The notes beneath the pieces are model-generated. The model was given only the letters and a program-made list of their open reading frames with translations, ran no database searches and was not told the origin of the DNA. Positions 675-45,017 of a DNA stretch of 64,000 nucleotides are shown piece after piece; the first letter of the stretch is position 1; every line of letters begins with the position of its first letter. A program made the position numbers and the translations under genes. The DNA lies in assembly GCA_016699385.1 (NCBI GenBank), contig CP064974.1:3242-67241 (forward strand). Direction: 5' to 3'. Source of the stretch: Candidatus Moraniibacteriota bacterium (GTDB lineage Bacteria; Patescibacteriota; Minisyncoccia; Moranbacterales; UBA1568).

Positions 675-741
675 TAAAACATATTTTGTAATTTAGATTT
701 TTTCATTTGAAATTATTTTAGAGCAAATACTAAAAAAAGGC

Positions 742-1657: not shown

Positions 1658-1670
1658 TAATAGTATCCCG

Positions 1671-1898
1671 TCACTTCCGCGGCGCCGGTCGGCGATGTGA
1701 ATCCGGATCGGTGATTGGAAAACTCGTCTTTTTGACGCGACTCTGAGTGTCGGAGAGCGCGGTAAGAGAGGCGGCCTTGGCTTGATTTACGAATACGCCA
1801 AGAGAGATAACAAAAACAAGGACGACTGAGAACGCTCCGCCTAGAGCATTTTTCATTTGCGCCCAAACGGGTTTTCGCCTGCGTCTTTTGGAAGGCAT
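1671..1898 (-). CDS. small predicted signal-peptide/membrane protein upstream of the secreted protein
   Basis: 75-aa ORF with MKNALGGAFSVVLVFVISLGVFVNQAKA (hydrophobic core followed by AKA-A). It ends 14 nt before the next minus-strand ORF. It could also be a 5' remnant of that gene. Confidence 0.25.
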   Translation of the reverse strand: MPSKRRRRKPVWAQMKNALGGAFSVVLVFVISLGVFVNQAKAASLTALSDTQSRVKKTSFPITDPDSHRRPAPRK

Positions 1899-2061
1899 AA
1901 TTTTGTTTTCCAGTGAGACTCTTTTTTTGAATTCTCTATCTCAGAATCCCTTCTATGGGAAATAGTTAAAGTATTTTTGTTTTTTACGAAGGAGTCGAGA
2001 GAATTAATGTCAAATACTTAGAGCTCTTCACTTTTCTCATGCTCTCCGCTAGGATGGAAAT

Positions 2062-3697
2062 ATGAAAGAACTCTTGCAATCAGCACTCAAAGACGCATTC
2101 CAATCACTTTTCGATGAAGGAGGGAAGACTCTTTCGTGTGAAGGGGAACCTTCTTTCGATGTGACATTCCCAAAAGATGACTCGCATGGAGACTATACAT
2201 CGAACATTGCTCTTTTCGCTTGCGAGGCATTTGAAGCAATCGCCACTTGATATAGCTCACCGTCTTGAAGAGCAGTTGTCCAAGGATAATCGCTTGAGAC
2301 AATTTACTATTGAAGTTATTTGCTCGGGGTATATCAATTTTTCGGCCACTCCGGAGATGCTTGCGGAATTGTAGCGGAAATATGCGCCAAGAAGAATGAA
2401 TATGGCGCACAAGAGCTCAATGATCATGGCAAGATTCTTCTGGAATTCATCTCTGCCAACCCGACCGGACCGCTCCATATGGGGAATGCTCGCGGAGGAT
2501 TCTTTTGGTGATACGCTCTCGCGAATTCTGAAGAAGTGCGGCTATGACGTTTCAACTGAATATTATGTGAATGATGCCGGGGAGCAGGTTGCGAAGCTTG
2601 GGCATAGTGTCCTTAAAGATACTGAAGCGGTATATGGTGGTGAGTATATCGATGATCTTGGGAAGAGATGGGCGCGACAGTCGGAACTTCGAGTAGACCG
2701 ATCCGCGAGTTGTTGGAGCGTGGGCAGGGCGGATTGTTCTGGAAGAATACATTCAGAAAACCGTTTCGGAGCGAATGGGAATATCGTTTGACGATTTTAT
2801 CTCTGAAAAAAACGATATCGTCGAGGCAGGATATGTCGATCGGGCAATCTCGTTTCTCAAAGAGGAGGGACTGACCCATGAAGAGCAAGGCGCTCTTTGG
2901 CTTCGGACGACGGTATGGTGATGATAAAGACCGAGTACTCATAAAAGCAAATGGAGAAAGGACCTATTTTGCGTCGGACTGTGGGTATCTTCTCCACAAA
3001 AAGGAACGTGGCTTTGACCGAATCAGCGAGGTCTGGGGTGCTGATCACCATGGGTATGTGGCGAGGTTTCACGCGGCGGCGGAGGCACTTGGCTTTGCCG
3101 GGATCGAGTGACGTTTACACTGGTTCAATTGGTACCGCTTGGTAAAGAATGGTCAGAAGTCCGCATGTCCAAGCGCGCTGGGAATATCGTGACGGTAGAT
3201 GAATTGCTCAATCGGATTGATGTTGATGTGGTGCGATTCTTCTTTCTCATGTATTCCCTGATACACATGAATTTCGATATGGGACTTGCCGAAGAGCGAA
3301 GTCAGAAGAACCCGGTCTTCTATGTACAGTATGCTCATGCGCGTATGGCGAGTATTTTCCGGAAAGCCGAAGAAGAACTTGGTATGAATATGCAAGAATT
3401 CTCTGTCAATCAAGAAGAAATACACCTTCAGAATTCGAAAGAGATTCTTTTGGTGCGACACTTGGCGAGATTTTCAGAAGTGCTTTGCTCTGCCGTTGGA
3501 AACGTCTACTGTGCACCAGCTTCCTCAGTATGCGATTCGTCTCGCCGATCTTTTCCACTCGTTTTACAACGAATGTACGGTTCTTGATTCCGGGAATATG
3601 CCCGTGACACGATCACGTCTCGCGCTTGTCGGTGCGACCAAGAATGTGTACTCGCGGAGACGCTTCGATTGATTGGTGTCTCTGTGCCAGAGAGGAT
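2062..3697 (+). pseudogene. argS: arginyl-tRNA synthetase gene broken into at least 6 frames
   Basis: Consecutive ORF pieces carry ArgRS hallmarks: [17 protein letters not shown] (HIGH region), the YVNDAGEQV segment, GADHHGY, the anticodon-binding region RFFFLMY...VQYAHARM, and the C-terminus ...LRLIGVSVPERM* ending at 3697. At least six frame changes are needed to read through. One maps to a T-run (ctcttttcg near 2215). Confidence 0.8.
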
Positions 3698-3781
3698 GTG
3701 AGGCAATTTTCTTGTGGCGCGTTCTTTGACAGTGCTTGGCGCTTTGTTATGCTGACCAAAGTGTCAGTTTTTCTTTTCTTT

Positions 3782-5614
3782 CTATGTCCACCCCGCTTCA
3801 TATTTTGAAAACGCAGGTTTAGGTTTGATCCGTTTCGCTCTCATCAGGAGGCGATTATCGAAGCAGTGCTCGCTGGGAGAGATGCCTTTGTGCTCATGCC
3901 GACGGGCGGTGGGAAGTCGCTTTGCTATCAGATTCCAGCGCTCCTTTTGCCAAATGTCACTGTGGTTATTTCGCCACTCATCGCGCTGATGAAGGATCAG
4001 TGGATGCACTTCCGGGTGGCTGGTGTTGCGGCGGAATATCTCAATTCGTCGCTCTCGCCCGAAGAGCAGGATCGGGTGCTCGCCTCTCTTGTGCGCAGGA
4101 AGACGAAGCTCTTGCATATTGCGCCCGAGCGACTTTTGGCGCGTCATCCCTTGTTCCGTTCTTGCAAGAAGTGGGCGTGTCACTTTTTGCGGTTGATGAG
4201 GCGCACTGTATCTCGGCATGGGGACATGATTTTCGTCCGGAGTATCGCTTCCTTTCCGACCTCAAGAAATTCTTCTCTGCGACGCCGACGGTCGCGCTCA
4301 CGGCAACGGCGGACGATTTGACGAGTCAGGATATTGTCGAACGACTCGCGCTCCACTCACCGCTCTTTTTCAAATCGAGCTTTGACCGTCAAATATCCAC
4401 TATACTATCAACCGAAAGCAAAGATTTTGAGCGATTGATTCGCTATCTTGCAACGCGCCGCAATGATTCCGGTATTGTCTATACGCTGTCACGGAAATCT
4501 GCTGACAGTGTGGCAAGGCGACTTACTGAAGCAGGATTCTCGGCGCTATCCTATCATGCAGGGCTCGATGCGAGTGTACGAGACAAACATCAGGGTCGAT
4601 TTCTCCGCGATGAGACCAAGATTATTGTTGCGACGATTGCTTTTGGTATGGGAATCAACAAGTCCAATGTGCGATTTGTTGTCCATATGGATCTCCCCAA
4701 GAATATCGAGCTACTATCAGGAGACGGGGCGTGCTGGCCGGGATGGTCTTCAGAGTGAAGCGCTCCTCTTCTATTCGCCGGCAGATGTGCAGAAGCTCGC
4801 ACGGTTTGCACTCGTTGATGGGAATGAAGAGCAATCGGTCGTTATGCTCCGCAAGCTCAAACAGCTGGCAGACCTCTGCGAGGCAAATGTGTGCCGACGA
4901 CATCTCATCTTGCGCTATTTCGGTGAAGTTTTTCCAGAATCATGCGATGCCTGTGATGTGTGTCTCTCCGAACGGACGACATTTGATGGCACGCTTATTG
5001 CGCAGAAATTGCTTTCGGCAGTCTTTCGTCTCCATGAGCGAGTTGGTCTTGGCTATACTATAGGACGTGCTTCGCGGATCGAAATCCGAGAAGATCTGCC
5101 CTGAGCATCGTGCCATAAAAACTTTGGCGCGGGCACAGACACTTCTCGGGAAGCGTGGTTTCGCTATGCCAAGGATCTCATCGCATTGGGATTCCTGAAG
5201 CAAGTGGGCGAACCATACCCGACACTTTCACTGACAGAGAAGAGCGCTGCTGTACTTCGTGGTGAGACACGGGTAATGCTGACCGCTTCAGTGGAAGTCA
5301 AAAAGGAAGTAGAGGTAGTCATTCCTGCTCACGAAGCGACACTTCTCGATCAACTCAAAGCGCTTCGTACGGACTATGCGCAGAAAGAAAACGTGCCGCC
5401 CTACATTATCTTCTCCGATGCGACACTTCTCGAGCTTGCCACATTTCTTCCATCGGACATATCCGAGCTTGCGAATCTCTGGCTTCGGAGAAGTGAAGAC
5501 GCGGCGATATGGCAAAGCCTTCCTCAGTGTTGTCGCTACCTATTGTCGAGAACACGGACTGTCATCAAAATGTCGGAGAAAATTTCGGTTCGGTTCTCGC
5601 GAAAGATAAGGTGA
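3782..5614 (+). pseudogene. recQ: RecQ-family ATP-dependent DNA helicase, multiply frameshifted
   Basis: Pieces carry RecQ motifs: AFVLMPTGGGKSLCYQIPAL (Walker A), AVDEAHCISAWGHDFRPEY (motif II), YYQETGRAGRDG (motif VI), a Cys-rich RecQ-Ct zinc region (CDACDVC) and a C-terminal HRDC-like segment (5186..5614). The start MSTPLHILKTQV at 3782 is followed immediately by a frame change. The helicase core is spread over at least four reading-frame segments (3782, 3866, 3922, 4448). Confidence 0.8.
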
Positions 5615-5822
5615 CGCAGAAGTCTGTTTGCCGAGAGACAGGGGTCTCAGCGCGATAGAGACGCACTTTTGGAAAGTTGAGATTTCTCAACTTCGCTCGG
5701 AAATGGCTATGGCTTCCGCTCTATCGTTTCAAGCAAAGTATTTTCTCTCGTATTCTGCGGAGGGCGAGTTGTTTCAGAAGATGCGCGTGTGATGATACAA
5801 TGGTGATATCAAAACCCCCTCT

Positions 5823-7321
5823 ATGAAACTCTCCCTCACATTTCCTCCAGTGGGGCGGCATCGCCGCCGTGCTGCTTGTTGTCGTCGGACTCAAACTACG
5901 ATTTCGAATCCAAAGCCAGCATGCAGCTCAATGGTTCTGTCGAGAGCTCGCTCTCCCAATCCCTCCGCGGCTACTGGAAACTCGATGACGGCTCCGGCAC
6001 CAACGCGACCGACAGTAGCGGAAACACGAACACCCTCGCCATGACCGGCTCCCCCGAGTTGGACGACGGGGAATATCGGTCCATACGCTCTCGACTTCTC
6101 CGGCTCCGGACAATACCTCTCCGTCGCCGATCCCGCAAGCGGTGTCCTCGACTTTGCCGATGGCGCCGACTTCTCCATCACCGGCTGGTTCAACCGAGAC
6201 TTTTCACCGCCGATCACGATCGTCGCCAAGAAAACAGATCTAACGACCAATGCCGGCTATGTGCTATGGATAGATAACAATGGAGGAACCGATTACCTCA
6301 ACTTCGAGATCGCCGATGGAACCGATACCTACAGCGTCGCTTCCTCTACCGACTTCAGCGCGACCGGTTGGCACAACTTTGCCGCCGTCTGGGATGACTC
6401 GAACGGCATGTATCTCTATATAGATGGCGGTCTCAACAGTAGCACGACCACATCAACCGCAAGTATCGGCAGTCTCGCCAATACCAATGCCTTCCGTATC
6501 GGCGCGGAATCAGATGCGGGCGTTCCCTTTGACGGGAAGCTCCGACGATATTCGCGTCTATGGCTCCGCCCTGAGCGCAAGCGATGTCTTGAAGCTCTAC
6601 CAAACGACCGCGCCGGCACAGCCGGTCGACACAGGGCTCGTCGGGCACTGGACCTTTGACGGACCGGATATTGCGGGGACGACCGCGATCGATCGGTCAA
6701 GTTTGGGAATAATGGAACGATAACGGGAGCGGTACCGACGATCGGGAAATTGGGCCAGGGGATGGGGTTTGATGGGACGGCGTCTACCTCAATCGATGCC
6801 GGGTCGGGGAGTTCTCTCGATAATCTGCCTGCCATGACCATAGCTTTCTGGGTGCGCATTGAATCCTTCCCGACCTTAAAGAACTATGTCCTCTCGAAAG
6901 ATTTGAATTGTTGCGGCGCGTCGGTCGGATGGATAACATCATTCCATTCGTACTACAAAATGTTTGCCCTCGAAGTACAATACGATGGCGGAACGAATTT
7001 GAACGCGAGTACACCGGACAATAGTTTCACTAGCAGTGACTTCGGAGTATGGACGCATGTGGCAGTCACTTGGACAGGAGCCAGTCAACATCGGGTATGA
7101 CCTTCTACAAAAAACGGAGTCAGCTTTGACAACAAGCAATTGGGATGACGGAATAGGGGAGCCGTGCTGATGATAGCGGCTATCCGGTTACAAATTGGCG
7201 CCGCCCCAAACTACGAAGGGGAAATGGAATTGACGGCTCCCTCGACGATATACGCCTCTATACCCGCGTCCTCTCGGCGACGGAAGTAGTGAACCTCTAT
7301 ACTCTCCAGGCGGTAGGGTGA
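5823..7321 (+). pseudogene. degraded paralogue (copy A) of the 3xLamG surface protein
   Basis: Fragmented frames reproduce blocks of the intact 38066..40228 protein (SQSLRGYWKLDDGSGTNATDSSGN..., WIDNNGGTDYLNFEIADGTDTY..., DDIRVYGSALSASDV...). There are several frame changes, plus a TM-like WGGIAAVLLVVVGL segment that is out of frame with the ATG. Confidence 0.65.
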
Positions 7322-7437
7322 TAGATGGAACGAGAAGCTTAGATACCTCATTCAATCCATTCAAGCGTGTTCATTTGTAAAAAATAATTTTCTAGCCGTC
7401 ATCCATACTGCCCCTCAAAATATCGGTCAAGAAGAGA

Positions 7438-10400
7438 ATGTTTCCATCAGTTTTCTTTTCGGTCACTGCCCTTTTTCTGTTCGTCGGTATTTCTTCAAGC
7501 GCCGAAGCAACCAAACAAATATGTGCGCCAGGTGCTTCTGGGAGTGGGAGCGATTGGGCGAACGCGTATGCGACATTGCCGAGCGATCTGACCCGCGGCG
7601 ATACCTACTACATCGCGGATGGGAGTTACGGCAGCTACACCTTCGACGACAACGCCAGCGGTACAACGCCGATCACTATCAAGAAATGCACTGCGAGCGA
7701 TCAAGGACGGAGACGGGGTACAGTTCGGCTTATTGCGACGGGCAGGCGGTATTTGGGTCATTTATTTTTGCGAGTGACTACTGGATTATTGATGGTGCAA
7801 CGCGGAATGAAAGTAATTGGGCTGATGGTGGTGCGTACGGTTTCCGCGTATCAACGTTCTCGGCGAACACGTCATTCTCGCCGGGAGTGTGCGCATCTAA
7901 TCTGACAATGCAGTATGTGAACGCAGGGGGCACGCCCACGGAAACCCGCCGACAGGCGGCGTGGACGCAGCATTTTTATATAGGCGGTTTTGATGAATAT
8001 TGTCAGAATTGGACGATGTCTCACAACTATGTGCACGACACAATCACAACCTATCATATGAATGGAGTACGGGGCGGGTTGATCGAGTACAGCTATATCG
8101 TAAATGGATGGTCAAAAGGAAGCGATCCGCGGTCAAATTTGTATGAGCAATTTTCCATTCGGCATAATATCTTCAAGGATTCCTGTCAGGGGAATCCTGC
8201 CGATCCCACAGCTGGTGCTTGTACTGGGACAATTGCCCTTTTTGATGGTTTTACGAAAACTCGGCATACGGGCTAATTCGAAAATCTACGGAAATGTTTT
8301 ATGGGTAATCAATAGTGCATCTATGCAAGATGCTATCATTGTTATCGGTGGATCAAACGACAATGTTCCGGGAGTGGAAATCTACAATAATACCCTGGCG
8401 GGTTTTAAGGAAGGGAATCTCGCTGGCTTGGTCCGAGGTTCGGGTAGCGTATGCCGAAACAATCTGTCATACGATACTGCCGCATCGGTTGCCTATAGTT
8501 GCTCGTCATCGTCAAATAACATTCACAGTAATATTTCCCCGTTCGTCAACTACTCAGGAGGAGATTTCCGCCTGTCTGGAGCTACGGCGGCGGGTTATTC
8601 TGGGTTCCTACAACGCGGATTTATTGAGCAATACCCGCGGGGCCGACGGGCACCTGGGACATCGGCGCCTACGAGTACACCTCCGGCTCTAGTACCCCGA
8701 CACCACTTCTCCCACTTCTCCCACCGGCCTCGCCGCAAACGCCACGAGCCAATCGAGCATCACCGTCTCCTGACCGCCTCGACCGATCCGATAGTCGCGG
8801 GACAGACCACCTCAGGTATTTCCAATTACATCGTCGAGCGCTGCCAAGGCTCCGGTTGTTCCACCTTCACCCAAGTCGGCACTCCGACCACCTCTCCCTT
8901 CGTCGACTCCGGCCTCACGCCAAACACCTTTTACAACTACTCACGTCCGCGCTGACCGATGCCCGGGAATCTCTCCGGCTGGTCCAATGTGGTCGGTGCC
9001 ACCACGCAGTCGGGCGGAGTCAATTATTACATCCGTGACGGAGGCACATCCTCAACCTGTACCGACTGGACGAATGCCTGTGGATTCGCTTCCCGTCGAC
9101 TCTGGTGCGCGGGGCAACCTACTATATCGCGGATGGGAGTTACGGCAGCTACACCTTCGACGACGACGCGAGCGGTACGACACCGATTACAATCAAGAAA
9201 TGCATTGCGAGCGATCACGGGACGGGGACGGGATACAGTGCGGACTATTGCGACGGGCAGGCGGTATTTGGCGGTCTGTATTTGCTCTCGCCCTTACTAT
9301 GTCATCGACGGCGCCACGCGAAAATGAAAGTAACTGGAAGGACGCCGGGGCTTATGGCATTAGAGCGACTGAAGTTCGGGCGTCTCGGCTCGATGGAGGA
9401 CATTTCCCATCAGGTGAATGCTCGGCGGATAATCTGTCGTTCAGCTATTTGCACGTCGGCAATACGGGACTACTTATGCCACATACACCGGGTCGAGATC
9501 TTTTTATCTAGGCGGGTTTGGGGCGGTGCGCTAGCCTGCCAAAAATTGGTCGATCTCTCGGGTACTTATTCAGAACACGCTGGAGTTGCAGTGCGCTGGC
9601 GGCGAAGGGCTTCTTGTTGAGAAAAGCTGTTTTACAAAGGTTGGTCCAAGGAAGCAATAGGGGGCAAGTGCATTGCAAGGATGCGATTGTTCGATGGAAT
9701 ATTTTTGAGGATTCATGTCACAATCCGCAAGAGGGCTATGCTTGTACTGGTGAAATTGCTGCTTGGGATGGAAATGCCAACTCAATGGATGCGTGGCAAT
9801 CTATGGTAATGTCTTCTACAAGACAGGGCAAGACACTTATCTCAATACAGACGCTGTTGTGATGATTGGAGATACGGTTGGTCCTGGGCCGACATTAATA
9901 ATTCCGTTGCATACGACAATACTATTGCAGGAATTAAGGTTGGTTATAATTCGAGCATCCACTAAACGGTGGCACAGGCAATGTCTGTCGCAATAATCTC
10001 TGGTATGATACCAAGACCAGTGGTTGTTCCGCGAATACTTCTAGCAATAATATCCTAGCTACTAGCAATCCGTTTGTTAATTATCCGGGCGGCGATTTGC
10101 GATTGTCCGGTACCACGGCGGCGGGTTATTCTCTGGGTTCACCCTACAACGCGGATTTATTGGGCAGCACCCGCGGTGCCGACGGCACCTGGGACATCGG
10201 CGCCTACGAGTACACCTCCGGCTCTAGTACCCCTGACACCACTTCTCCCACGTCTCCCATTTTACAACTATCATGTCCGCGCAACCGATGCCGCCGGGAA
10301 TCTCTCCGGCTGGAGCAATGTGGTCGGCGCCACCACACAAGCTCCTGATACGCAAGCGCCCACAGCTCCGAGTAATCTCCAAACCTCCGTCGTCTCATCC

Positions 10401-11736
10401 TCCAGCATCAACCTCGCCTGGACGGCAAGCACAGACAATGTCGCCGTCACCAATTACACCGTCGAACGCTGCTCCGGAACTTCCTGCACCACCTTCACCC
10501 AAATCGCCACTCCAACGACCAACTCCTACTCCGACGCCGGTCTTACGGGAACGACGACCTACCGCTACCGAGTCCTCGCAACCGATGCCGCCAACAACAC
10601 TTCCCCCTACTCAAATATTGCTTCCGCCACGACCCCCGAGACACCTCCCGTCTCCCAGTATCTCCAGGCGGGCTACAACTTTGCCGAAGGCACCGGCACC
10701 ACGACCCAAGACATCTCCGGTCACAATCACACCGGTACTCTCTCCAATACCACCTGGTCGACGAGCGGCAAATACGGAAACGCTCTCGACTTTAACGGAA
10801 CGAGCAGCTCTGTCGGTATTGGAAACTGGAACATTCCCGGAAGCGCCATCACCCTAAGCGCCTGGGTACGGGCGGACGACTGGAAGACGGACGATGTCCG
10901 CATCCTCTCCAAAGCAACCGACAGTACCGAACAGGGACATACCTGGATGCTCTCCGATTCCAATAGTCTCCTCCGCTTCCGCCTCAAAACCGGTGGCACA
11001 ACCACAACCCTCGTTGCAACGAGCGGCACTCTCCAAACAAATGTCTGGACTCATGTCGCCGCGGTCTATGACGGAAGCACGATGACACTCTACAAAGACG
11101 GACTCGAAGTCGGAAGCCAAGCCAAAACCGGCACCATCGATCAAAACACCGCCAACATTTCAATCGGAGCAAACCCGAAGGCTCCAACTCCTTTGACGGT
11201 ACGATAGACGATGTCCGCATCTACAACAAGGCGCTCACGCAACAAGAAATCCAAACCGATATGAATACCCCGCTCACCCAAGGAGGAAGCGGAACCCAAG
11301 TTTGCAACACCGTGACGACCGCGAACTTCTCCGATGCCGCTTACAACAGTTACGGCGCGCCTTTCGATGCGTTTCAAACGAGTACGAATCTGATGAATGC
11401 ACTGTGCACCAGCGCCGACACGCATACCATCACGTTCACGACCGGAGTAACGGAGACACCGCGAGAATCGTCTACACCAAAGGCTACTGGTACGATGCAA
11501 TAGGAAGCGCCTGGCGACAATACACCGGCACCTGCACGGGAGCGCTCAATGGCGAGTGGTGCCAAGGCTCCGTCTCCGCGACGATCACGGATGCCAATGT
11601 CTCCACTTCCGGGACGGGCTCACCCACCTACCTGGTCGGGATGACCTGCAGTGTGCAGGGAGGTGGGTGGAAGTGTGGGTGTAGAGATACGACGTGCGCG
11701 AATTTTTCGTGGCAGATACAGGGAGCGGGGATGTAG
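7438..11736 (+). pseudogene. degraded paralogue (copy A) of the large beta-helix/FN3/LamG surface protein
   Basis: The signal peptide MFPSVFFSVTALFLFVGISSSAEA is followed by more than 10 ORF fragments. Together these recapitulate the domain order of the 40316..44951 protein: beta-helix, FN3, second beta-helix, FN3x2, LamG, then the Cys-rich C-terminal domain ending GAGM* at 11736. Confidence 0.7.
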
Positions 11737-11773
11737 AAACGAAGATTTTGCGTCCCAATTATCTTTCCAACCT

Positions 11774-13967
11774 ATGTTTTCTATCCGACTCTTTCTTGGA
11801 CAATCATTGCGCTTTTTCTTGCTGTGGGGGCGGGGTTCTACTGGAAACACCAAGGGCAGAATGAATCAAAAGCCGGGACGACGGTGAATGCGCCCGAAAC
11901 AACAATCAATACGCTCACGACCGGACTCGTCGGGCATTGGACATTTGATGCCCTCGATATCTCCGGGACGACGGTAACGGATCGGGGAACCGGAGGAAAT
12001 GACGGGACGATCACGGGAGCAGTGCCAGCCTTGGGGAAACTGGGTCAGGGGATGGGGTTTGATGGGGGTGGGGATTATGTTTGCATGGGCGATGTCCTTG
12101 CATTCGAACGTACCGACCCATTTTCGCTTTCGGCATGGGTTCATCTCGCGACAGACTCGGATGTAGACGGTTCAATAATCGGAAAGATGGGTCCTACCCC
12201 TGATCAGCGAGGATACGACATCTATGCTTCGACCGCTTCATGGAAAGCGAATATTCGAAACAGCGATTCCGGTTCCAATGGCATCACCGTGAATGGACTT
12301 TCCGATATCGCCGATGAAACATGGCACCATATCGCTGTGACGTATGACGGTTCCTCGAGCGCTTCGGGGGTCACTCTGTACGTCGATGGCGCGGATGATA
12401 CGGGCACGACTGACATGGATACGCTTTCCGCTACCATTGTCTCGAGTGCGGATTTTTCGATGGGCACACGAAACTGCACCCCTTCGCCCATCTTTGATGT
12501 TAAGGGGGTGATCTGACGATGTTCGCATCTACTCCCGCGCGCTCACCCAAGCGGAAGTCTACCAGCTCTCCACTGCCGGCGTGGCGACGGTGAACGCTCC
12601 TGTCGAAGACCCCTCTCCCAATCCCTCCGCGGCTACTGGAAACTCGATGACGGCTCCGGCACCAATGCGACCGACAGTAGTGGAAATGCAAACACCCTCG
12701 CCATGACTGGCTCTCCCGGTTGGGTGACCGGAAACATCGGTCCCTCTGCCCTCGACTTCTCCGGAAGCGGACAATACCTCTCCGTCGCCGATCCCGCAAG
12801 CGGTGTCCTCGACTTTGCCAATGGAGCCGACTTCTCCCTCACAGGCTGGTTCAATCGAGACACTTTCACCGCCGACCACACCATCGTCGCCAAGAAAACC
12901 GACCAAGCTACCAATGCCGGCTATGTCGTCTGGATAGATGCCTCTACCGATACGGTCAACTTCGAAATTTCTGATGGTACCTATACCTACGAAGCAGACT
13001 CTACCACAACATTCACATCAACCGGTTGGCATCACTTCACTGCCGTCTGGGATGATAGTCGTGGTGCCTCTGTCTATATCGACGGAGGACTCAATGGAAG
13101 CACAGAAACCTCTACCAGTAGTATAGGAGACCTCTCGAACGCCAATGCCTTCCGTATCGGAGCCGAATCCGACGCCGGAGTTCCTTTTGATGGCAAGCTC
13201 GATGATATCCGCGTCTATGGCTACGCTCTCTGCTGACGAAGTAAAGAAGCTCTACAATACCACGAGCCCCGCCCAACCCGTCGACACCTCCTTGGTTGGG
13301 CACTGGACGTTTGATGGTCCGGATATTCAGGGAGTACCGCAATAGACAGGAGTAGCTTCGGGAACAATGGGACGATAACGGGAGCGGTACCGGTGAAGGG
13401 GAAATTGGGCCAGGGGATGAGTTTTGATGGGGATGGGGATTATGTGTATGCCGGGTCGGGGTCGTCGCTTGCCAATTTGAGCGCTCTCACGATTTCATTT
13501 GGATGAATTTGGATTCGTTTGGCCAGAATAGCCAGGGAAATGTTATCAACAAAGGTTCCGATTGTTGCACGCCTTTGGAAGGATTTCTCGTGAGAGTGGA
13601 CGGAATATATAATTTTGTCGTATTTGGTGTTGATTATGATGGAGCGACAGATCTTGCAATGCAGTCCCTTGATAATTCTCTGACGAGTTCAGATTTCGGT
13701 ATCTGGAATCATATCGCGGTGACATGGACCGGATCATCCGCAGCGACGAGCGTCGTCATATACAAGAACGGACAAAATGTCACTCAGTCATCCGGCGACA
13801 ATGGCATCGGAAGTCGGAGAGACGATTCCGGATCGGGTTTCCATATTGGAGTTGATGCAGGATGGCCCATTGCGCGTGCTTTTGATGGGAAACTCGACGA
13901 TGTCCGCCTCTACAATCGTGTCCTCTCGGCAACGGAAGTAATGAATCTCTATACTCTCGGGCGGTAG
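11774..13967 (+). pseudogene. degraded paralogue (copy B) of the 3xLamG surface protein
   Basis: The ATG at 11774 is out of frame with the TM/LamG reading frame, and there are at least 5 further frame changes. The 3' part (12596..13967) is identical to 38853..40228 except for single-base homopolymer/dinucleotide deletions (cccc->ccc, ctctct->ctct, gggg->ggg, tttt->ttt). Confidence 0.7.
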
Positions 13968-14350
13968 GGCGATAGATGGAACGAGAAGCATAGATACCTC
14001 ATTCAATCCATTCAAGCGTTCATTTGTAAAAAATAATTTTCTAGCCGTCATCCTATGCTACCCCTCAAAATATCGGTCAAGAAGAGAATGCTCCGATCAG
14101 TCTTCTTTTCGGTCACTGCCCTTTTTTTGTTCATCGGTATTTCTTCAAGCGCCGAAGCGGCAAACAAATATGTGCGCCAGGGTGCTTCTGGGAACGGGAG
14201 CGATTGGACGAACGCGTATGCGACATTGCCGAGCGATCTGACCCGCGGCGATACCTACTATATCGCGGATGGGAGTTACGGCAGCTACACCTTCGACGAC
14301 AACGCCAGCGGCACAACGCCGATCACGATTAAGAAATGCACTGCGAGCGA
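12596..14350 (+). repeat. dispersed duplication: about 1.76-kb block essentially identical to 38853..40635 (26 kb away)
   Basis: Minus- and plus-strand ORF-track peptides 12633..12914, 12720..12974, 12938..13126, 13546..13737 and 13788..14051 are letter-for-letter identical to 38890..39171, 38977..39231, 39195..39383, 39807..39998 and 40049..40312. The offset drifts from 26257 to 26261 because of 4-5 single-base indels. Confidence 0.9.
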
Positions 14351-17063
14351 TCATGGGACGGAGACTGGGTACAGTTCGGCTTATTGCGACGGGCAGGCGG
14401 TATTTGGGTCATTTATTTTTGCGAGTGACTACTGGATTATTGATGGTGCAACGCGGAATGAAAGTAATTGGGCTGATGGTGGTGCGTACGGTTTCCGCGT
14501 ATCAACGTTCTCGGCGAACACGTCATTCTCGCCGGGAGTGTGCGCATCTAATCTGACAATGCAGTATGTGAACGCAGGGGGCACGCCCACGGGAAACCCG
14601 CCGACAGGCGGCGTGGACGCAGCATTTTATATAGGCGGTTTTGATGAATATTGTCAGAATTGGACGATGTCTCACAACTATGTGCACGACACAATCACAA
14701 CCTATCATATGAATGGAGTACGGGGCGGGTTGATCGAGTACAGCTATATCGTAAATGGATGGTCAAAGGAAGCGATCCGCGGTCAAATTTGTATGAGCAA
14801 TTTTTCCATTCGGCATAATATCTTCAAGGATTCCTGTCAGGGGAATCCTGCTGATCCCACAGCTGGTGCTTGTACTGGGACAATTGCCCTTTTTGATGGT
14901 TACGAAAACTCGGCATGCTGGGCTAATTCGAAAATCTACGGAAATGTTTTATGGGTAACCAATAGTGCATCTATGCAAGATGCTATCATTGTTATCGGTG
15001 GATCAAACGACAATGTTCCGGGAGTGGAAATCTACAATAATACCCTGGCGGGTTTTAAGGAAGGGAATCTCGCTGTCTTGGTCCGAGGTTCGGGTAGCGT
15101 ATGCCGAAACAATCTGTCATACGATACTGCCAGATCGGTTGCCTATAGTTGCTCGTCATCGTCAAATAACATTCACAGTAATATTTCTCCGTTCGTCAAC
15201 TACTCAGGAGGAGATTTCCGCCTGTCTGGAGCTACGGCGGCGGGTTATTCTCTGGGTTCACCCTACAACGCGGATTTATTGAGCAATACCCGCGGTGCCG
15301 ACGGCACCTGGGACATCGGCGCCTACGAGTACACCTCCGGCTCTAGTACCCCCGACACCACGTCTCCCACTTCTCCCACCGGCCTCGCCGCAAACGCCAC
15401 GAGCCAATCGAGCATCACCGTCTCCTGGACCGCCTCGACCGATCCGACAGTCGCAGGACAAACCACGTCAGGTATTTCCAATTACGTCGTCGAACGCTGC
15501 CAAGGAACAGGCTGTTCCACCTTCACCCAAGTCGGCACTCCGACCACCTCTCCCTTCGTCGACTCCGGCCTCACGCCAAACACCTTTTACAACTATCACG
15601 TCCGCGCGACCGATGCCGCCGGGAATCTCTCCGGCTGGTCCAATGTGGTCGGCGCCACCACACAAGCTCCTGATACGCAAGCGCCCACAGCTCCGAGTAA
15701 TCTCCAAACCTCCGTCGTCTCATCCTCCAGCATCAACCTCGCCTGGACGGCAAGCACAGACAATGTCGCCGTCACCAATTACACCGTCGAACGCTGCTCC
15801 GGAACTTCCTGCACCACCTTCACCCAAATCGCCACTCCAACGACCAACTCCTACTCCGACGCCGGTCTTACGGGAACGACGACCTACCGTTACCGAGTCC
15901 TCGCAACCGACGCCGCCAACAACCTCTCCCCCTATTCGAATATTGCTTCCGCGACCACGCCCGTTGCGCCTCCCGTCTCCCAGTATCTCCAGGCGGGCTA
16001 CAACTTTGCCGAAGGTACCGGCACCACCACCCAAGACATCTCCGGTCACAACCACGCCGGTACTCTCTCCAATACAACTTGGTCGACGAGCGGCAAATAC
16101 GGAAACGCTCTCGACTTTAACGGAACGAGCAGCTCTGTCGGTATTGGAAACTGGAACATTCCCGGAAGCGCCATCACCCTAAGCGCCTGGGTACGGGCGG
16201 ACGACTGGAAGACGGACGATGTCCGCATCCTCTCCAAAGCAACCGACAGTACCGAACAGGGTCATACCTGGATGCTCTCCGATTCCAATAGTCTCCTCCG
16301 CTTCCGCCTCAAAACCGGTGGCACAACCACAACCCTCGTTGCAACGAGCGGCACTCTCCAAACAAATGTCTGGACTCATGTCGCCGCGGTCTATGACGGA
16401 AGCACGATGACACTCTACAAAGACGGACTCGAAGTCGGAAGCCAAGCCAAAACCGGCACCATCGATCAAAACACCGCCAACATTTCAATCGGAGCAAATC
16501 CCGAAGGCTCCAACTCCTTTGACGGTACGATAGACGATGTCCGCATCTACAACAAGGCGCTCACGCAATCAGAAATCCAAACCGATATGAATACGGCGCT
16601 TACTTCGGGAGGAGGCGGTACGGTCGCCTGCAACACGGTGACGACCGCGAACTTTTCCGATGCCGCTTACAACAGTTACGGCGCGCCTTTCGATCCCTTC
16701 ACGAGTAACACCCCGCTTGTCAATGTGACCTGTAACAGCGCCGATACCGACACGATCACTCTCACGACCGGCATAACCGGCGACACGACCCGCATCGTCT
16801 ACACCAAAGGCTACTGGTACGATGCAATAGGAAGCGCCTGGCGACAATACACCGGCACCTGCACGGGAGCGCTCAATGGCGAGTGGTGCCAAGGCTCCGT
16901 CTCCGCGACGATCACGGATGCCAATGTCTCCACTTCCGGGACGGGCTCACCCACCTACCTGGTCGGGATGACCTGCAGTGTGCAGGGAGGTGGGTGGAAA
17001 TGCGGATGTCGGGACACGAGTTGTACGAATTTCTCGTGGCAGATTCAAGGGGCGGGACAGTGA
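14055..17063 (+). CDS. large secreted surface protein (copy B, intact): signal peptide, right-handed beta-helix (pectate-lyase-like) domain, 2 FN3 domains, LamG_3 domain and an about 150-aa Cys-rich C-terminal domain
   Basis: 1002-aa ORF. The likely true start is the second ATG at 14088 (MLRSVFFSVTALFLFIGISSSAEA), which has a GAAGAGA RBS. A beta-helix cap motif (RGADGTWDIGAYEY) and two FN3-like units (ITVSWTASTD...YNYHVRATDAAGNLSGWSN; INLAWTASTDNVAVTNYTVERC...YRYRVLATDAANN) are present. A LamG_3 signature (GNALDFNGTSSS...ITLSAWVRADDW...FDGTIDDVRIYNKALTQSEIQ) follows, then a C-terminus with 8 Cys (...GGGWKCGCRDTSCTNFSWQIQGAGQ*). Confidence 0.8.
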   Translation: MLPLKISVKKRMLRSVFFSVTALFLFIGISSSAEAANKYVRQGASGNGSDWTNAYATLPSDLTRGDTYYIADGSYGSYTFDDNASGTTPITIKKCTASDHGTETGYSSAYCDGQAVFGSFIFASDYWIIDGATRNESNWADGGAYGFRVSTFSANTSFSPGVCASNLTMQYVNAGGTPTGNPPTGGVDAAFYIGGFDEYCQNWTMSHNYVHDTITTYHMNGVRGGLIEYSYIVNGWSKEAIRGQICMSNFSIRHNIFKDSCQGNPADPTAGACTGTIALFDGYENSACWANSKIYGNVLWVTNSASMQDAIIVIGGSNDNVPGVEIYNNTLAGFKEGNLAVLVRGSGSVCRNNLSYDTARSVAYSCSSSSNNIHSNISPFVNYSGGDFRLSGATAAGYSLGSPYNADLLSNTRGADGTWDIGAYEYTSGSSTPDTTSPTSPTGLAANATSQSSITVSWTASTDPTVAGQTTSGISNYVVERCQGTGCSTFTQVGTPTTSPFVDSGLTPNTFYNYHVRATDAAGNLSGWSNVVGATTQAPDTQAPTAPSNLQTSVVSSSSINLAWTASTDNVAVTNYTVERCSGTSCTTFTQIATPTTNSYSDAGLTGTTTYRYRVLATDAANNLSPYSNIASATTPVAPPVSQYLQAGYNFAEGTGTTTQDISGHNHAGTLSNTTWSTSGKYGNALDFNGTSSSVGIGNWNIPGSAITLSAWVRADDWKTDDVRILSKATDSTEQGHTWMLSDSNSLLRFRLKTGGTTTTLVATSGTLQTNVWTHVAAVYDGSTMTLYKDGLEVGSQAKTGTIDQNTANISIGANPEGSNSFDGTIDDVRIYNKALTQSEIQTDMNTALTSGGGGTVACNTVTTANFSDAAYNSYGAPFDPFTSNTPLVNVTCNSADTDTITLTTGITGDTTRIVYTKGYWYDAIGSAWRQYTGTCTGALNGEWCQGSVSATITDANVSTSGTGSPTYLVGMTCSVQGGGWKCGCRDTSCTNFSWQIQGAGQ

Positions 17064-18289: not shown

Positions 18290-18591
18290 ATCAGTAGTAT
18301 CGGCGACACCACCCGAATCGTCTACACCAAAGGCTACTACTATGATCCCGGTATTGCTGACTGGCATCAGTTTACCGGCACCTGTACAGGTGCCCTCAAT
18401 GGAGAATGGTGCCAAGGAAGTATCACTGCTTCCATTACCGATACCGATATCTCGACTGCGAGTGCCATAGACCCTGCCTACTTTGTCGGGATGACCTGCA
18501 GTATCCAAGGTGGTGGATGGAAGTGTGGGTGTCGGGATACAACGTGTTCAAACTTCTATTGGCAGGTGCAGGGGGCGGGGTTGTAGAGTGA
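18290..18591 (+). pseudogene. orphan 3' fragment encoding only the Cys-rich C-terminal domain of the large surface-protein family
   Basis: In-frame translation gives ISSIGDTTRIVYTKGYYYDPGIADWHQFTGTCTGALNGEWCQGSITASITDTDISTASAIDPAYFVGMTCSIQGGGWKCGCRDTTCSNFYWQVQGAGL*. This is about 75% identical to the C-termini of the 14055 and 40316 proteins. There is no start codon and no upstream domains. It begins 6 nt after the Fic stop. Confidence 0.7.
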
Positions 18592-36047: not shown

Positions 36048-36176
36048 CATATACGAAAAACAGTGCGAGATGTATGGTTTTTTTGATGCCTTTTCAACTG
36101 ACTCTTAAAAAAGTTTCAAATCTCAAATTTCTGAAATCGTTTTCTCATTTCAGGTCTGGATTTTGAATTTTTTCCT

Positions 36177-37232: not shown

Positions 37233-37279
37233 GCAGAGGTATAGAGTTTGTAATTCCCATTTTTTATTCCTGCTCTTCC

Positions 37280-37717: not shown

Positions 37718-38031
37718 GAGTCGTTTTTGCCAACGACTCTCACAAAGAAAATGCCCACCATACGCGTGGTTATTTTTTTGTAAAATCATTTTTTCTATCC
37801 CTACACCCCTCCCCCTTGCACCTGCCAGTTGAAACTCGCACACGCCGTATCCCGACACCCGCACTTACACCCGCCACCCTGCACAGAGCCCGTCATCCCC
37901 ACAAGGTAGGCAGGGTCTGTGGCGCTTGCGGTACGAGTATCAATATCTACAGTATACCACTTCTCTCTCATTTTTTTCACCGGTTGTTTTACGAGTCACT
38001 TCTCATATTTTCGTTCAAGAATTCGGGACCA

Positions 38032-38059: not shown

Positions 38060-38065
38060 GCCCTC

Positions 38066-40228
38066 ATGCATCGGAAAACGAAACGCGCGTATTTGTTTCA
38101 ATGGATTATCATTTCCCTCTTCCTCCTCGCGGGGACAGGAGGATATTTTTGGTATCAGTCGAAGGCGGGCGTGACGGTCAGTTCGCCAGGGACCAGTGAC
38201 AATGCTCTCACGAGCGGGCTCGTGGCACACTGGACTTTCGATCAGAATCATATCGTGTGGAGCGATACGACGACGGAAATTAAGGACTCGACTGCCGGCG
38301 CACAACATGGCAATGCCGTTGGCTCTCTATCAGAGGCAAGTGTCGTCCCTGGCAAGCAGGGGCAGGCGCTCAAGTTTAATGGGACGAGCGATCAGATAGA
38401 GACTCCCTACAACACGACACTCACTTCCTACTCTTTTGCCTTTTGGTTCAAGACGGGGGACGTGCATGTGGATGATTATGATACGATTATCGCAAAGTTT
38501 TATTATGACCGTTGCGAAATACGAGGGTACGCCAATGAACTCCTCGCTTGTACAATTGATAATTCAAGTAATCTTGTGTACTCCCGCTCCTCCGTTATTG
38601 ATGATACATGGCATCACGGAGTCTTCACAGTAACAAATGGCAGTCAGAAGCTCTATGTAGATGGTATACTCAATGATTCACGGACTGATGCATTCACCTC
38701 AGCTCCTGATACAATATCCATTGGCGTTGACTATGACTTGTCGAGTGCATCTCGCTTCCCTGGCTCCATCGACGATGTCCGTGTCTACAACCGCGTCCTC
38801 TCCGCTTCCGAAGTCTACCAGCTCTACACGGCTGGCACCGCAACAGTAAATGCTCCTGTCGAAGACCCCCTCTCCCAATCCCTCCGCGGCTACTGGAAAC
38901 TCGATGACGGCTCCGGCACCAATGCGACCGACAGTAGTGGAAATGCAAACACCCTCGCCATGACTGGCTCTCCCGGTTGGGTGACCGGAAACATCGGTCC
39001 CTCTGCCCTCGACTTCTCCGGAAGCGGACAATACCTCTCCGTCGCCGATCCCGCAAGCGGTGTCCTCGACTTTGCCAATGGAGCCGACTTCTCCCTCACA
39101 GGCTGGTTCAATCGAGACACTTTCACCGCCGACCACACCATCGTCGCCAAGAAAACCGACCAAGCTACCAATGCCGGCTATGTCGTCTGGATAGATGCCT
39201 CTACCGATACGGTCAACTTCGAAATTTCTGATGGTACCTATACCTACGAAGCAGACTCTACCACAACATTCACATCAACCGGTTGGCATCACTTCACTGC
39301 CGTCTGGGATGATAGTCGTGGTGCCTCTGTCTATATCGACGGAGGACTCAATGGAAGCACAGAAACCTCTACCAGTAGTATAGGAGACCTCTCGAATGCC
39401 AATGCCTTCCGTATCGGAGCCGAATCCGACGCCGGAGTTCCTTTTGATGGCAAGCTCGATGATATCCGCGTCTATGGCTACGCTCTCTCTGCTGACGAAG
39501 TAAAGAAGCTCTACAATACCACGAGCCCCGCCCAACCCGTCGACACCTCCTTGGTTGGGCACTGGACGTTTGATGGTCCGGATATTCAGGGGAGTACCGC
39601 AATAGACAGGAGTAGCTTCGGGAACAATGGGACGATAACGGGAGCGGTACCGGTGAAGGGGAAATTGGGCCAGGGGATGAGTTTTGATGGGGATGGGGAT
39701 TATGTGTATGCCGGGTCGGGGTCGTCGCTTGCCAATTTGAGCGCTCTCACGATTTCATTTTGGATGAATTTGGATTCGTTTGGCCAGAATAGCCAGGGAA
39801 ATGTTATCAACAAAGGTTCCGATTGTTGCACGCCTTTGGAAGGATTTCTCGTGAGAGTGGACGGAATATATAATTTTGTCGTATTTGGTGTTGATTATGA
39901 TGGAGCGACAGATCTTGCAATGCAGTCCCTTGATAATTCTCTGACGAGTTCAGATTTCGGTATCTGGAATCATATCGCGGTGACATGGACCGGATCATCC
40001 GCAGCGACGAGCGTCGTCATATACAAGAACGGACAAAATGTCACTCAGTCATCCGGCGACAATGGCATCGGAAGTCGGAGAGACGATTCCGGATCGGGTT
40101 TCCATATTGGAGTTGATGCAGGATGGCCCATTGCGCGTGCTTTTGATGGGAAACTCGACGATGTCCGCCTCTACAATCGTGTCCTCTCGGCAACGGAAGT
40201 AATGAATCTCTATACTCTCGGGCGGTAG
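38066..40228 (+). CDS. membrane-anchored 3xLamG (concanavalin A-like lectin) surface protein (copy C, intact)
   Basis: The ORF track starts at 37919, but the TM anchor begins after Met-50 (MHRKTKRAYLFQWIIISLFLLAGTGGYFW) at 38066. Three LamG_3-type units each end with a DD(I/V)R(V/L)Y(N/G)xxLSA(D/S/T)E(V)...LY motif. Confidence 0.8.
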   Translation: MHRKTKRAYLFQWIIISLFLLAGTGGYFWYQSKAGVTVSSPGTSDNALTSGLVAHWTFDQNHIVWSDTTTEIKDSTAGAQHGNAVGSLSEASVVPGKQGQALKFNGTSDQIETPYNTTLTSYSFAFWFKTGDVHVDDYDTIIAKFYYDRCEIRGYANELLACTIDNSSNLVYSRSSVIDDTWHHGVFTVTNGSQKLYVDGILNDSRTDAFTSAPDTISIGVDYDLSSASRFPGSIDDVRVYNRVLSASEVYQLYTAGTATVNAPVEDPLSQSLRGYWKLDDGSGTNATDSSGNANTLAMTGSPGWVTGNIGPSALDFSGSGQYLSVADPASGVLDFANGADFSLTGWFNRDTFTADHTIVAKKTDQATNAGYVVWIDASTDTVNFEISDGTYTYEADSTTTFTSTGWHHFTAVWDDSRGASVYIDGGLNGSTETSTSSIGDLSNANAFRIGAESDAGVPFDGKLDDIRVYGYALSADEVKKLYNTTSPAQPVDTSLVGHWTFDGPDIQGSTAIDRSSFGNNGTITGAVPVKGKLGQGMSFDGDGDYVYAGSGSSLANLSALTISFWMNLDSFGQNSQGNVINKGSDCCTPLEGFLVRVDGIYNFVVFGVDYDGATDLAMQSLDNSLTSSDFGIWNHIAVTWTGSSAATSVVIYKNGQNVTQSSGDNGIGSRRDDSGSGFHIGVDAGWPIARAFDGKLDDVRLYNRVLSATEVMNLYTLGR

Positions 40229-40315
40229 GGCGATAGATGGAACGAGAAGCATAGATACCTCATTCAATCCATTCAAGCGTTCATTTGTAAAAAATAATTT
40301 TCTAGCCGTCATCCT

Positions 40316-43300
40316 ATGCTACCCCTCAAAATATCGGTCAAGAAGAGAATGCTCCGATCAGTCTTCTTTTCGGTCACTGCCCTTTTTTTGTTCATCGGTA
40401 TTTCTTCAAGCGCCGAAGCGGCAAACAAATATGTGCGCCAGGGTGCTTCTGGGAACGGGAGCGATTGGACGAACGCGTATGCGACATTGCCGAGCCGATC
40501 TGACCCGCGGCGATACCTACTATATCGCGGATGGGAGTTACGGCAGCTACACCTTCGACGACAACGCCAGCGGCACAACGCCGATCACGATTAAGAAATG
40601 CACTGCGAGCGATCATGGGACGGAGACTGGGTACGGCGCGGGGTATTGCGATGGGCAGGCGGTATTTGGTGGTCTGACTTTTAAGCGCCCCTACTATGTG
40701 TTTGATGGTGCAAAACGAAATGAAGACAATTGGCAAGAGACGCTAGCCTATGGCTTTAAGACGTCCGAAATTTACGCAAACACAGGTGATGGCGCAAATG
40801 CTCCGAACATAATAATACGCTATGTGGATATCGGCGGTCCGAACGGAGAAATATGTACCGGGAGTACGCCAGGAAGTGGTATATATGCCGTGTATGGAAG
40901 CATGCACAACTGGACCATTTCCCGAAGCCATATACATAACGTGGAAATCAGTATTCGGACTGTTAATGTAAATAATTGGACTATTGAACATACCCATCTT
41001 GGTCCGAGTTGGGCAAAAGAAAGCATTTCAAACAATGAAGCGAGCGGGTGGATTCTTCGACACAATAAATTCATCGACAATCTCATCTATCCTCCAACCG
41101 CTTGCCAACACGGTGGCGACGGCGCGACGGCAGATATGTGGACTCGTGTAACCAACGGATCGAATGATAATTGGTCAGTCTATGGAAATGTTTTCGGAGA
41201 TAGTGGCACGTACAACAACATCATGCGCACCAATGCGGTCGTATTGGGAAGTTATTGGAGCGGTCCGTCGGACGGTGTTAGTGGGTGGAAAGTGTACAAC
41301 AATGTGTTTTACAACATTCAAGGAGGACAAAATCTCGTCAAACTGGGGAACGGAAGCGGCAATGTCGTCGCGAATAATCTATGGTATAAATCGCGGGAAG
41401 CCGGTCAAAATATCGGTATCGTTACCAATGGAACAGCTTATACCTCATGGTGCAATTCTACACCCTATTCCCTCTGCCCCTCTTCGCCCGGGACGTGGCT
41501 GCAAGGAAGCGACAATCCTTTCGTCAATGTAACTGGTTTTAATTTTAATCTTAAATCTTCGATTTCTGGCGCATCTCCCATTAATGCTGGAACGGCGCTT
41601 GGCGAAGGCTTTGACTCAATTGACGGAAACGGAAATACCCGCGGTGCCGACGGCACCTGGGACATCGGCGCCTACGAGTACACCTCCGGCTCTAGTACCC
41701 CCGACACCACTTCCCCCACTTCTCCCACCGGCCTCGCCGCAAACGCCACGAGCCAATCGAGCATCACCGTCTCCTGGACCGCCTCGACCGATCCGATAGT
41801 CGCGGGACAGACCACCTCAGGTATTTCCAATTACATCGTCGAGCGCTGCCAAGGCTCCGGTTGTTCCACCTTCACCCAAGTCGGCACTCCGACCACCTCT
41901 CCCTTCGTCGACTCCGGCCTCACGCCAAACACCTTTTACAACTATCACGTCCGCGCGACCGATGCCGCCGGGAATCTCTCCGGCTGGTCCAATGTGGTCG
42001 GTGCCACCACGCAGTCGGGCGGAGTCAATTATTATATCCGTGACGGAGGCACATCCTCAACCTGTACCGACTGGACGAATGCCTGTGATTCGCTTCCGTC
42101 GACTCTGGTGCGCGGGGCAACCTACTATATCGCGGATGGGAGTTACGGCAGCTACACCTTCGACGACGACGCGAGCGGTACGACACCGATTACAATCAAG
42201 AAATGCATTGCGAGCGATCACGGGACGGGGACGGGATACAGTGCGGACTATTGCGACGGGCAGGCGGTATTTGGCGGTCTGTATTTCACTCGTCCTTATT
42301 ATGTCATCGACGGCGCCACGCGAAATGAAAGTAACTGGAAGGACGCCGGGGCTTATGGCATTAGAGCGACTGAAGTTCGGGCGTCTCGGCTCGATGGAGG
42401 ACATTCCCCATCAGGTGAATGCTCGGCGGATAATCTGTCGTTCAGCTATTTGCACGTCGGCAATACGGGGACTACTTATGCCACATACACCGGGTCGAGA
42501 TCTTTTTATCTAGGCGGGTTTGGGGGCGGTGCGCTAGCCTGCCAAAATTGGTCGATCTCTCGGGTACTTATTCAGAACACGCTGGAGTTGCAGTGCGCTG
42601 GCGGCGAAGGGCTTCTTGTTGAGAAAAGCTATTTTTACAAAGGTTGGTCCAAGGAAGCAATAAGGGGGCAAGTGCATTGCAAGGATGCGATTGTTCGATG
42701 GAATATTTTTGAGGATTCATGTCACAATCCGCAAGAGGGCTATGCTTGTACTGGTGAAATTGCTGCTTGGGATGGAAATGCCAACTCAATGGATGCGTGG
42801 CAAATCTATGGTAATGTCTTCTACAAGACAGGGCAAGACACTTATCTCAATACAGACGCTGTTGTGATGATTGGAGATACGGTTGGTCCTGGGCCGATTA
42901 CTAATAATTCCGTTGCATACGACAATACTATTGCAGGAATTAAGGTTGGTTATAATTCGAGCATCCACTTAAACGGTGGCACAGGCAATGTCTGTCGCAA
43001 TAATCTCTGGTATGATACCAAGACCAGTGGTTGTTCCGCGAATACTTCTAGCAATAATATCCTAGCTACTAGCAATCCGTTTGTTAATTATCCGGGTGGC
43101 GATTTGCGATTGTCCGGTACCACGGCGGCGGGTTATTCTCTGGGTTCACCCTACAACGCGGATTTATTGGGCAGCACCCGCGGTGCCGACGGCACCTGGG
43201 ACATCGGCGCCTACGAGTACACCTCCGGCTCTAGTACCCCCGACACCACGTCTCCCACTTCTCCCACCAACCTCGCCGCTACTGCTCCTTCATCCTCCAG

Positions 43301-44951: not shown

Positions 44952-45017
44952 GTGGATGGAGAATGTGGAAATTCAGAAGTGTGATACAATGGGGGCATAT
45001 ATTTTTGTGATGCGTGT

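Follow-up and report, generated by a model that had tools for sequence, protein, structure and literature searches.

In the contingency loci of Neisseria, Haemophilus and Campylobacter, changes in the length of mononucleotide or dinucleotide tracts shift the frame of surface-protein genes, and the tracts of known loci are far longer (homopolymers of about seven nucleotides or more, or many repeat units) than those that differ here. Cassette-based antigenic variation, as in Neisseria pilE/pilS, Borrelia vlsE and Mycoplasma genitalium MgPa, draws on multiple partly homologous cassettes with mosaic identity that encode surface proteins. Concerted evolution of tuf genes, rrn operons and outer-membrane or adhesin paralogues leaves sharp-edged tracts of near-identity, which include non-coding sequence and in which paralogues are more alike than orthologues. 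A technical counterpart is the residual error of R9.4.1 nanopore assemblies, in which one-base indels in both directions, mostly in short runs and peculiar to each repeat copy, break up genes that short-read assemblies show intact (PMC8812927, PMC9262707). Here we describe a locus that bears a likeness to each of these. It lies in a window of 64,000 nucleotides (the whole stretch of DNA that was analysed) from a Candidatus Moraniibacteriota bacterium (assembly GCA_016699385.1, contig CP064974.1, positions 3,242 to 67,241 of the forward strand), in which two surface-protein gene cassettes, B and C, share a near-identical block of about 1.78 kb. The near-identity of the block appears to be biological, and its indels are very probably technical.

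The genome carries at least five such cassettes as direct repeats, with a gene for a membrane-anchored multi-LamG protein followed by a gene for a large secreted fn3/LamG protein (the big gene). We compared cassettes B and C with each other and with contigs from related strains (1-8% divergent), all of them short-read assemblies. Contig L006 (ENA, SPAdes) corresponds to the C locus, and L084 and L085, from wastewater, span a cassette whose LamG gene encodes 495 aa and whose big gene encodes 1002 aa. The features of the two window cassettes are:

12596-14372, plus strand: block copy B, running from the two final LamG_3 domains of the B LamG gene across 87 bp of intergenic sequence to codon 106 of the B big gene
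38852-40634, plus strand: block copy C, which agrees with the short-read contig L006 at indel sites 1-4
11774-13967, plus strand: cassette B LamG gene, with a transmembrane anchor and three LamG_3 domains; six frameshifts
14055-17063, plus strand: cassette B big gene, intact, 1002 aa (QQR77554.1), with signal peptide, fn3 domains and a LamG_3 domain
38036-40228, plus strand: cassette C LamG gene, intact, 730 aa (QQR77576.1), with three LamG_3 domains
40316-44951, plus strand: cassette C big gene, with one frameshift at 40495 and an internal duplication that L006 lacks

Direct alignment, extended outward, gave a block of 1777 nt in B and 1783 nt in C. An earlier sequence-only reading, made by a model without database searches, had recognised the block at 12596..14350 and 38853..40635; the block is real, and its 3' end in B lies 22 nt further, at 14372. 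The 3' part encodes the signal peptide and the first ~70 mature residues of the large secreted fn3/LamG protein. Inside the block there are 0-1 mismatches per 100 nt and outside it 29-57 per 100. At the left edge about 11 mismatches in 96 nt lead into unalignable sequence (55/72), and at the right edge 29/100 mismatches are followed by 46/79. The divergence of 10-25% that had been given for the rest of the paralogues was therefore loose, as the adjoining flanks are essentially unalignable and the big genes share 94% identity in their distal parts. A repeat this long cannot have arisen by chance.

The complete list of B-C differences in the block comprises five indel events and one substitution, and there are no scattered substitutions:

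12610-12613 (B) and 38866-38870 (C), plus strand: indel site 1, C4 in B and C5 in C; shifts the B LamG frame; C5 in L006
13226-13231 (B) and 39483-39490 (C), plus strand: indel site 2, (CT)3 in B and (CT)4 in C; immediate stop in B; (CT)4 in L006, L084 and L085
13330-13332 (B) and 39589-39592 (C), plus strand: indel site 3, G3 in B and G4 in C; G4 in L006, L084 and L085
13498-13500 (B) and 39758-39761 (C), plus strand: indel site 4, T3 in B and T4 in C; T4 in L006, L084 and L085
14234 (B) and 40495-40496 (C), plus strand: indel site 5, C1 in B and C2 in C; C1 in cassettes A and B, L006, L084 and L085
13140 (B) and 39397 (C), plus strand: the sole substitution, C in B and T in C, synonymous (AAC/AAT, Asn); T in C, L006, L084 and L085

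B is the shorter copy at all five indel sites. The alignment bears out the near-identity that the sequence-only reading had reported, apart from the synonymous C/T transition, which it had missed; two of its tract lengths need correction (C5/C4 rather than C4/C3 at site 1, and (CT)4/(CT)3 rather than (CT)3/(CT)2 at site 2), and the others stand. It had also attributed the frameshifts to these indels, and rightly so: each indel disrupts a reading frame, with sites 1-4 breaking the B LamG gene and site 5 the C big gene, where the insertion cuts the signal peptide (40316-40495) off the rest. The short, frame-breaking alleles at the B sites carry k-mers such as GTCGAAGACCCCTCTCCCAATCC, TACGCTCTCTGCTGACG, ATTCAGGGAGTACCGC and TTTCATTTGGATGAATT. 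Each of the six differences is private to one or other of the two copies.

Across the block, a single substitution separates B from C in 1777 aligned sites (0.06%). C and its orthologue L006 show 22 differences in 1782 sites (1.23%, compared with 2.2-2.7% in the flanks), and B shares every one of these 22. The tract is sharp-edged, the paralogues are closer to each other than the orthologues, and identity extends to synonymous sites and non-coding sequence, including the 87-bp intergenic region, which is identical in B and C; these are the marks of gene conversion. As far as sequence comparison can tell, the identity of the block is genuine concerted evolution by gene conversion, and the recent homogenisation that the sequence-only reading had proposed is well supported. 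In B, C, L006, L084 and L085 the flanking partner changes exactly where the block begins or ends. To the right of the block, B is almost identical to L084 (0-2 mismatches per 100 nt) and C follows L006, and L085, which equals L084 through the block, takes up another partner at this very junction. On the left side, B, C and L084 diverge at one shared point. Two paralogues in the same genome, P0026 and P0079, carry parts of the module with different last domains. Mosaic partner switching is seen both between cassettes and between strains.

In the mechanism that we propose, a constant module of ~1.78 kb would be kept homogeneous by non-crossover homologous recombination (gene conversion), and different variable flanks would be joined to it at the same two junctions. 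Since a crossover between the two copies would remove the ATP synthase operon together with leuS, only non-crossover events should be viable. This is a fresh example of a familiar process and no new mechanism. It differs from the described cases of concerted evolution in that the tract starts in the 3' part of one gene, reaches across the intergenic region into the 5' part of its neighbour, forms a constant module between variable regions and resides in a host of the Candidate Phyla Radiation (CPR) with a reduced genome. At the very 3' end of the C big gene, over ~120 nt (44804-44924, aligned to L001 128-248), we also observed dense patches of differences from a strain that is otherwise 99.9% identical, with 6 single-nucleotide polymorphisms (SNPs) in the next 6 kb; the patches resemble a short inter-strain tract of conversion or mosaicism.

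At every indel site that could be aligned, L006, L084 and L085 carry the frame-preserving allele, and the indels break open reading frames (ORFs) that are intact in these short-read assemblies of related strains. If indels made up 10-30% of natural changes, the probability of at least five indels among six events would be 5.5e-5 to 0.011. Frameshifts of the same kind recur in the B LamG gene outside the block, at 11792-11794 (T3, where the near-identical IPJ67_05375 has T4) and as an extra base at ~12512-12514, outside any run. Other cassette pieces of the genome have frameshifts of their own: QQR77526.1, the first gene of the record, has C2 for C3 at the position that corresponds to 39048-39050; the last gene, IPJ67_05375, encodes a LamG N-terminus of the B type and departs from B only in frameshifts of its own; and IPJ67_05355 is a big-gene fragment that ends at 290 aa through a private frameshift. 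Exact look-ups of the B big-gene product, the 177-aa B fragment (identical to QQR77552.1) and the 730-aa C LamG product matched no independent contig, a scan of genome contigs with the LamG protein returned only distant relatives (at most 47% identity), and a scan of metagenome contigs with a fully conserved 30-mer of the block gave 0 matches; these searches yielded no short-read contig of the same strain across the block.

The record itself is EsbW_18-Q3-R4-48_MAXAC.267, a circular metagenome-assembled genome of Moranbacterales UBA1568 with 1,111,322 bp and a coverage of 20x Illumina and 41x nanopore (Singleton et al. 2021, PMC8012365, Supplementary Data 3). For this wastewater bacterium, PromethION R9.4.1 reads were basecalled with Guppy 2.2.3 flip-flop and assembled with CANU 1.8, and the assembly was finished by a nucmer trim of the circular overlap, Racon, two rounds of medaka and Racon with 2x150 Illumina reads mapped by minimap2 (PMC8012365). 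R9.4.1 nanopore reads with CANU are an error-prone platform, and the pipeline is of the same type as in the known residual-error cases. R9.4.1 assemblies need polishing against homopolymer indels (Sereika et al. 2022, PMC9262707), and short-read polishing is unreliable in repeats (Polypolish, PMC8812927).

Four of the five block indels (sites 1-4) sit at the margin of a much larger indel-rich zone:

~2966-13500, no strand: indel-rich zone of low consensus quality, holding a gene for the C-terminal (DALR) domain of arginyl-tRNA synthetase (ArgRS), recQ, cassette A and the B LamG gene
5876-11736, plus strand: cassette A (LamG gene and big gene), heavily fragmented by one-base indels

The zone is at least 10 kb long, ~2966 being a lower bound on its leftward extent. 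Between 2966 and 4243 there are 10 indel events relative to L084. Over 459 nt at the 5' end of recQ, 5 substitutions stand beside 4 one-base indels, and one-base indels split the gene (3809-5611; DEAD, Helicase_C, RecQ_Zn_bind, RQC and HRDC domains) over at least four frame pieces, which GenBank likely lists as separate proteins or pseudogenes. The DALR gene (3045-3669; 4907-5443 in L084) is frameshifted, yet its 33 synonymous versus 11 non-synonymous codon changes indicate purifying selection; it is a stand-alone gene of ~178 aa for the anticodon-binding C-terminus of ArgRS, without the catalytic core. Cassette A shows 18 indels and 14 substitutions against C, and 14 and 31 against L084, with indels nearly all of 1 bp and in both directions. 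Taken together with the 5:1 of the block and the 4:5 of recQ, mostly one-base indels of either direction rival or outnumber substitutions, which is the pattern of residual long-read error.

Outside the zone the sequence is clean. The B big gene differs from L084 by 183 substitutions and 0 indels in 3009 nt, and 44925-50994 differs from L001 by 6 SNPs and 0 indels; 44923-47356 is 100% identical to a short-read Logan contig, and from 19.7 to 37.7 kb (ATP synthase operon to pilin gene) ORFs are intact with full-length Pfam matches. Isolated one-base insertions outside the zone were found at 40495 and at 55271-55274, both in repeated sequence. The latter falls in a giant ORF, which occupies one frame at 48904-55437 and resumes in the +1 frame at ~55232, extending beyond the end of the window (64000). 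At the switch, C4 at 55271-55274 stands against C3 in a 97%-identical paralogous repeat (52967-52969), and it is probably a further residual indel error that splits a gene of >5000 aa. Downstream, 55738-61386 consists of ~8.6 tandem copies of a 660-bp (220-codon) unit, 99.5-99.9% identical, gapless and all in frame in the giant gene. The same gene holds a perfect 430-bp repeat (50874-51303 = 53748-54177).

Both the first and the last gene of the record are frameshifted cassette pieces, and the N-terminal fragment of B, IPJ67_00130, has the 26th locus tag; with broken cassette pieces at both ends, the poor zone straddles the point at which CANU linearised the contig, inside the cassette array. 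The idea that the record start is an untrimmed duplicate of the B locus found no support, since the sequence after the block copy at the origin differs from that after B. Leftward of the zone, window positions 1-2965 show a strong GC skew as in coding regions, and no long ORF, Pfam domain, tRNA, Rfam match or homology to the cassettes or to the fetched loci was found there. In L084, the 3' end of a big gene lies upstream of the DALR gene, at the position that matches 1-2965, and this part of the window may be a rearrangement or a very poor consensus.

We consider it very probable that the five B/C indels are residual consensus errors of the R9.4.1 nanopore/CANU assembly. If so, the frameshifts of the B LamG gene would be absent from the organism, and that of the C big gene is probably absent as well. 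The B indels would be the tail of a locally poor consensus at the original contig ends within the cassette array, a stretch that short-read polishing would have left unrepaired. Why the zone is poor can be guessed at: contig-end consensus, low or strain-heterogeneous coverage, or competitive mapping may have contributed. Compared with the known R9.4.1 cases, the errors here are clustered over 10 kb or more, single-copy genes included, and the perfect 5.6-kb array is clean, which together point to a local cause (contig end, low coverage or strain heterogeneity) rather than to simple multi-mapping. Multi-mapping of short reads in repeats as the sole cause can be dismissed for the same reasons, as recQ is hit equally and the 660-bp array is not.

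Several observations weigh against attributing all five indels to error. Their status as errors is deduced from assembled sequence, and the comparison contigs stem from related strains (1-8% divergent), not from the same strain. The 5.6-kb array of 660-bp units (55738-61386, 99.9% identical) stays in frame with 0 indels, so that repeats alone do not suffice to explain where errors fall. C5 and (CT)4 are the longest C-run and the longest dinucleotide repeat of the block and would be the most slippage-prone in vivo. Site 5 (40495), whose surroundings are otherwise clean and which is not part of a homopolymer, could be a genuine mutation.

Two accounts would make the indels real. Cassettes A, B and others might be redundant copies that decay to pseudogenes after recent conversion, in an indel-biased lineage such as one without mismatch repair. 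All five changes do knock out genes of which an intact paralogue exists, two of them fall in the tracts of the block that are most prone to slippage, and the Prokaryotic Genome Annotation Pipeline annotated the fragments as separate proteins. We nevertheless regard decay as improbable: indel-to-substitution ratios of 5:1 in the block, 18:14 in cassette A and 4:5 in recQ are far from a natural spectrum, and indels are equally dense in recQ and in the DALR gene, which is under purifying selection. The nonsense substitutions and larger deletions expected of true decay were not seen, the adjoining B big gene has no indels, and the zone falls where the assembly record begins and ends. The sequence-only reading had left the choice between slippage and consensus error open, and consensus error is now favoured. 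Slipped-strand phase variation, in which the short tracts would be contingency switches that turn cassettes ON or OFF and give each cell a different LamG/adhesin combination, is suggested by the slip-type differences, by the surface-protein genes beside type IV pilus genes and by one gene being OFF per cassette, but it is extremely unlikely. The varying tracts measure 1-5 nt or 3-4 dinucleotide units, and the longer T7 and A6 runs of the block are invariant. The B LamG gene has six frameshifts, of which two lie beyond the block, and these do not amount to a single switch; C1/C2 at 40495 and the extra base at ~12512 are outside repeats, and recQ behaves identically. The locus thus departs from contingency loci in tracts that are far too short, in many sites per gene, in invariance of the longest tracts and in housekeeping genes that are hit as well. 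Programmed frameshifting or transcriptional slippage is out, given multiple sites, different directions and immediate stop codons, and so is a diversity-generating retroelement, as the differences are indels instead of adenine-specific substitutions and the scanned ORFs revealed no reverse transcriptase.

The identity of the block could itself be questioned, if reads of the paralogues had been pooled into one consensus during assembly or polishing. Near-identical repeats can be blurred at the read-correction step of CANU or by Racon with short reads, and the region is demonstrably poorly assembled, but such pooling is very unlikely here. At 1.78 kb the block is short enough for single nanopore reads anchored in unique flanks; these flanks are sharply distinct and each matches a different independent contig (B with L084, C with L006); the IPJ67_05355 cassette keeps its own variant of the block; and the block is highly conserved in three independent short-read assemblies. 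The collapsed repeat invoked by the sequence-only reading therefore holds only as far as consensus error is concerned, as the copies were not collapsed and the poor stretch also hits single-copy genes. At the other extreme, the LamG/fn3 cassettes might be a recombination-driven variation system for pilus-associated surface adhesins, with the module as a homology platform for reshuffling variable N-terminal LamG domains and C-terminal adhesin bodies within and between strains, and with some frameshifts (e.g. 40495) as genuine ON/OFF states. We regard this as improbable. As in cassette antigenic variation, one copy lies beside pilus genes; unlike the promoterless, 5'-truncated donors of pilE/pilS, the cassettes are complete expression units with their own start codon, signal peptide and an identical upstream region, and B has a start codon, a transmembrane anchor, a signal peptide and an upstream intergenic sequence that is the same as in C. 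For unidirectional high-frequency switching of the cassettes we found no evidence.

Cassette C follows directly on pilus genes:

34335-37717, plus strand: type IV pilus genes directly upstream of cassette C, encoding a PilB-type ATPase, a PilC-type platform protein and a pilin

The order at this locus is histidine kinase, response regulator, PilB, PilC, pilin, cassette C and parB. Cassettes A and B lie downstream of the DALR gene and recQ and upstream of a Fic gene and the ATP synthase operon. The big proteins are under purifying selection (89 synonymous versus 50 non-synonymous codon differences between B and L084), and this codon comparison gave no sign of programmed diversification. Within the C big gene, 41634-43543 is an internal duplication of a ~1.2-1.5 kb module (41637-42004 resembles 43176-43543), and the alignment to L006 has a gap across 42015-43175. 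Relics of big-gene 3' ends occur at 37800-37947 (minus strand, inverted, just upstream of the C LamG gene) and at 18296-18590 (plus strand, after the Fic gene). They are 74-89% identical to 44842-44952, 11446-11737 and 16778-17056, and are traces of past cassette rearrangements. In the pilus operon, divergence between 35274-36176 and L006 1-1000 is 0-2% in pilC and the pilin gene, 6.6% at the 3' end of pilB and 14% in the pilB-pilC intergenic region, a jump that suggests recombination between strains. The leucyl-tRNA synthetase (27114-30077, 987 aa) has a NUDIX match at residues 433-527, an unusual insertion between the editing domain and the remaining catalytic core. Scans for RNA genes and for promoters and terminators gave nothing informative.

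Overall, a public 'complete' CPR genome, CP064974, contains a stretch of at least 10 kb near the record origin with roughly 0.5-1% indels that are very probably errors. These would create spurious pseudogenes and fragments, with recQ, LamG and fn3 proteins deposited in pieces as separate proteins, and phase variation, pseudogenisation or gene loss inferred from this zone would mislead. For the organism, the finding is that a reduced Patescibacteria genome of 1.1 Mb maintains five or more large cassettes for LamG/fn3 surface proteins, and that a type IV pilus operon houses one of these. A cassette family with a homogenised module, and with flanks swapped at fixed junctions, could bear on how these episymbionts attach to their hosts.

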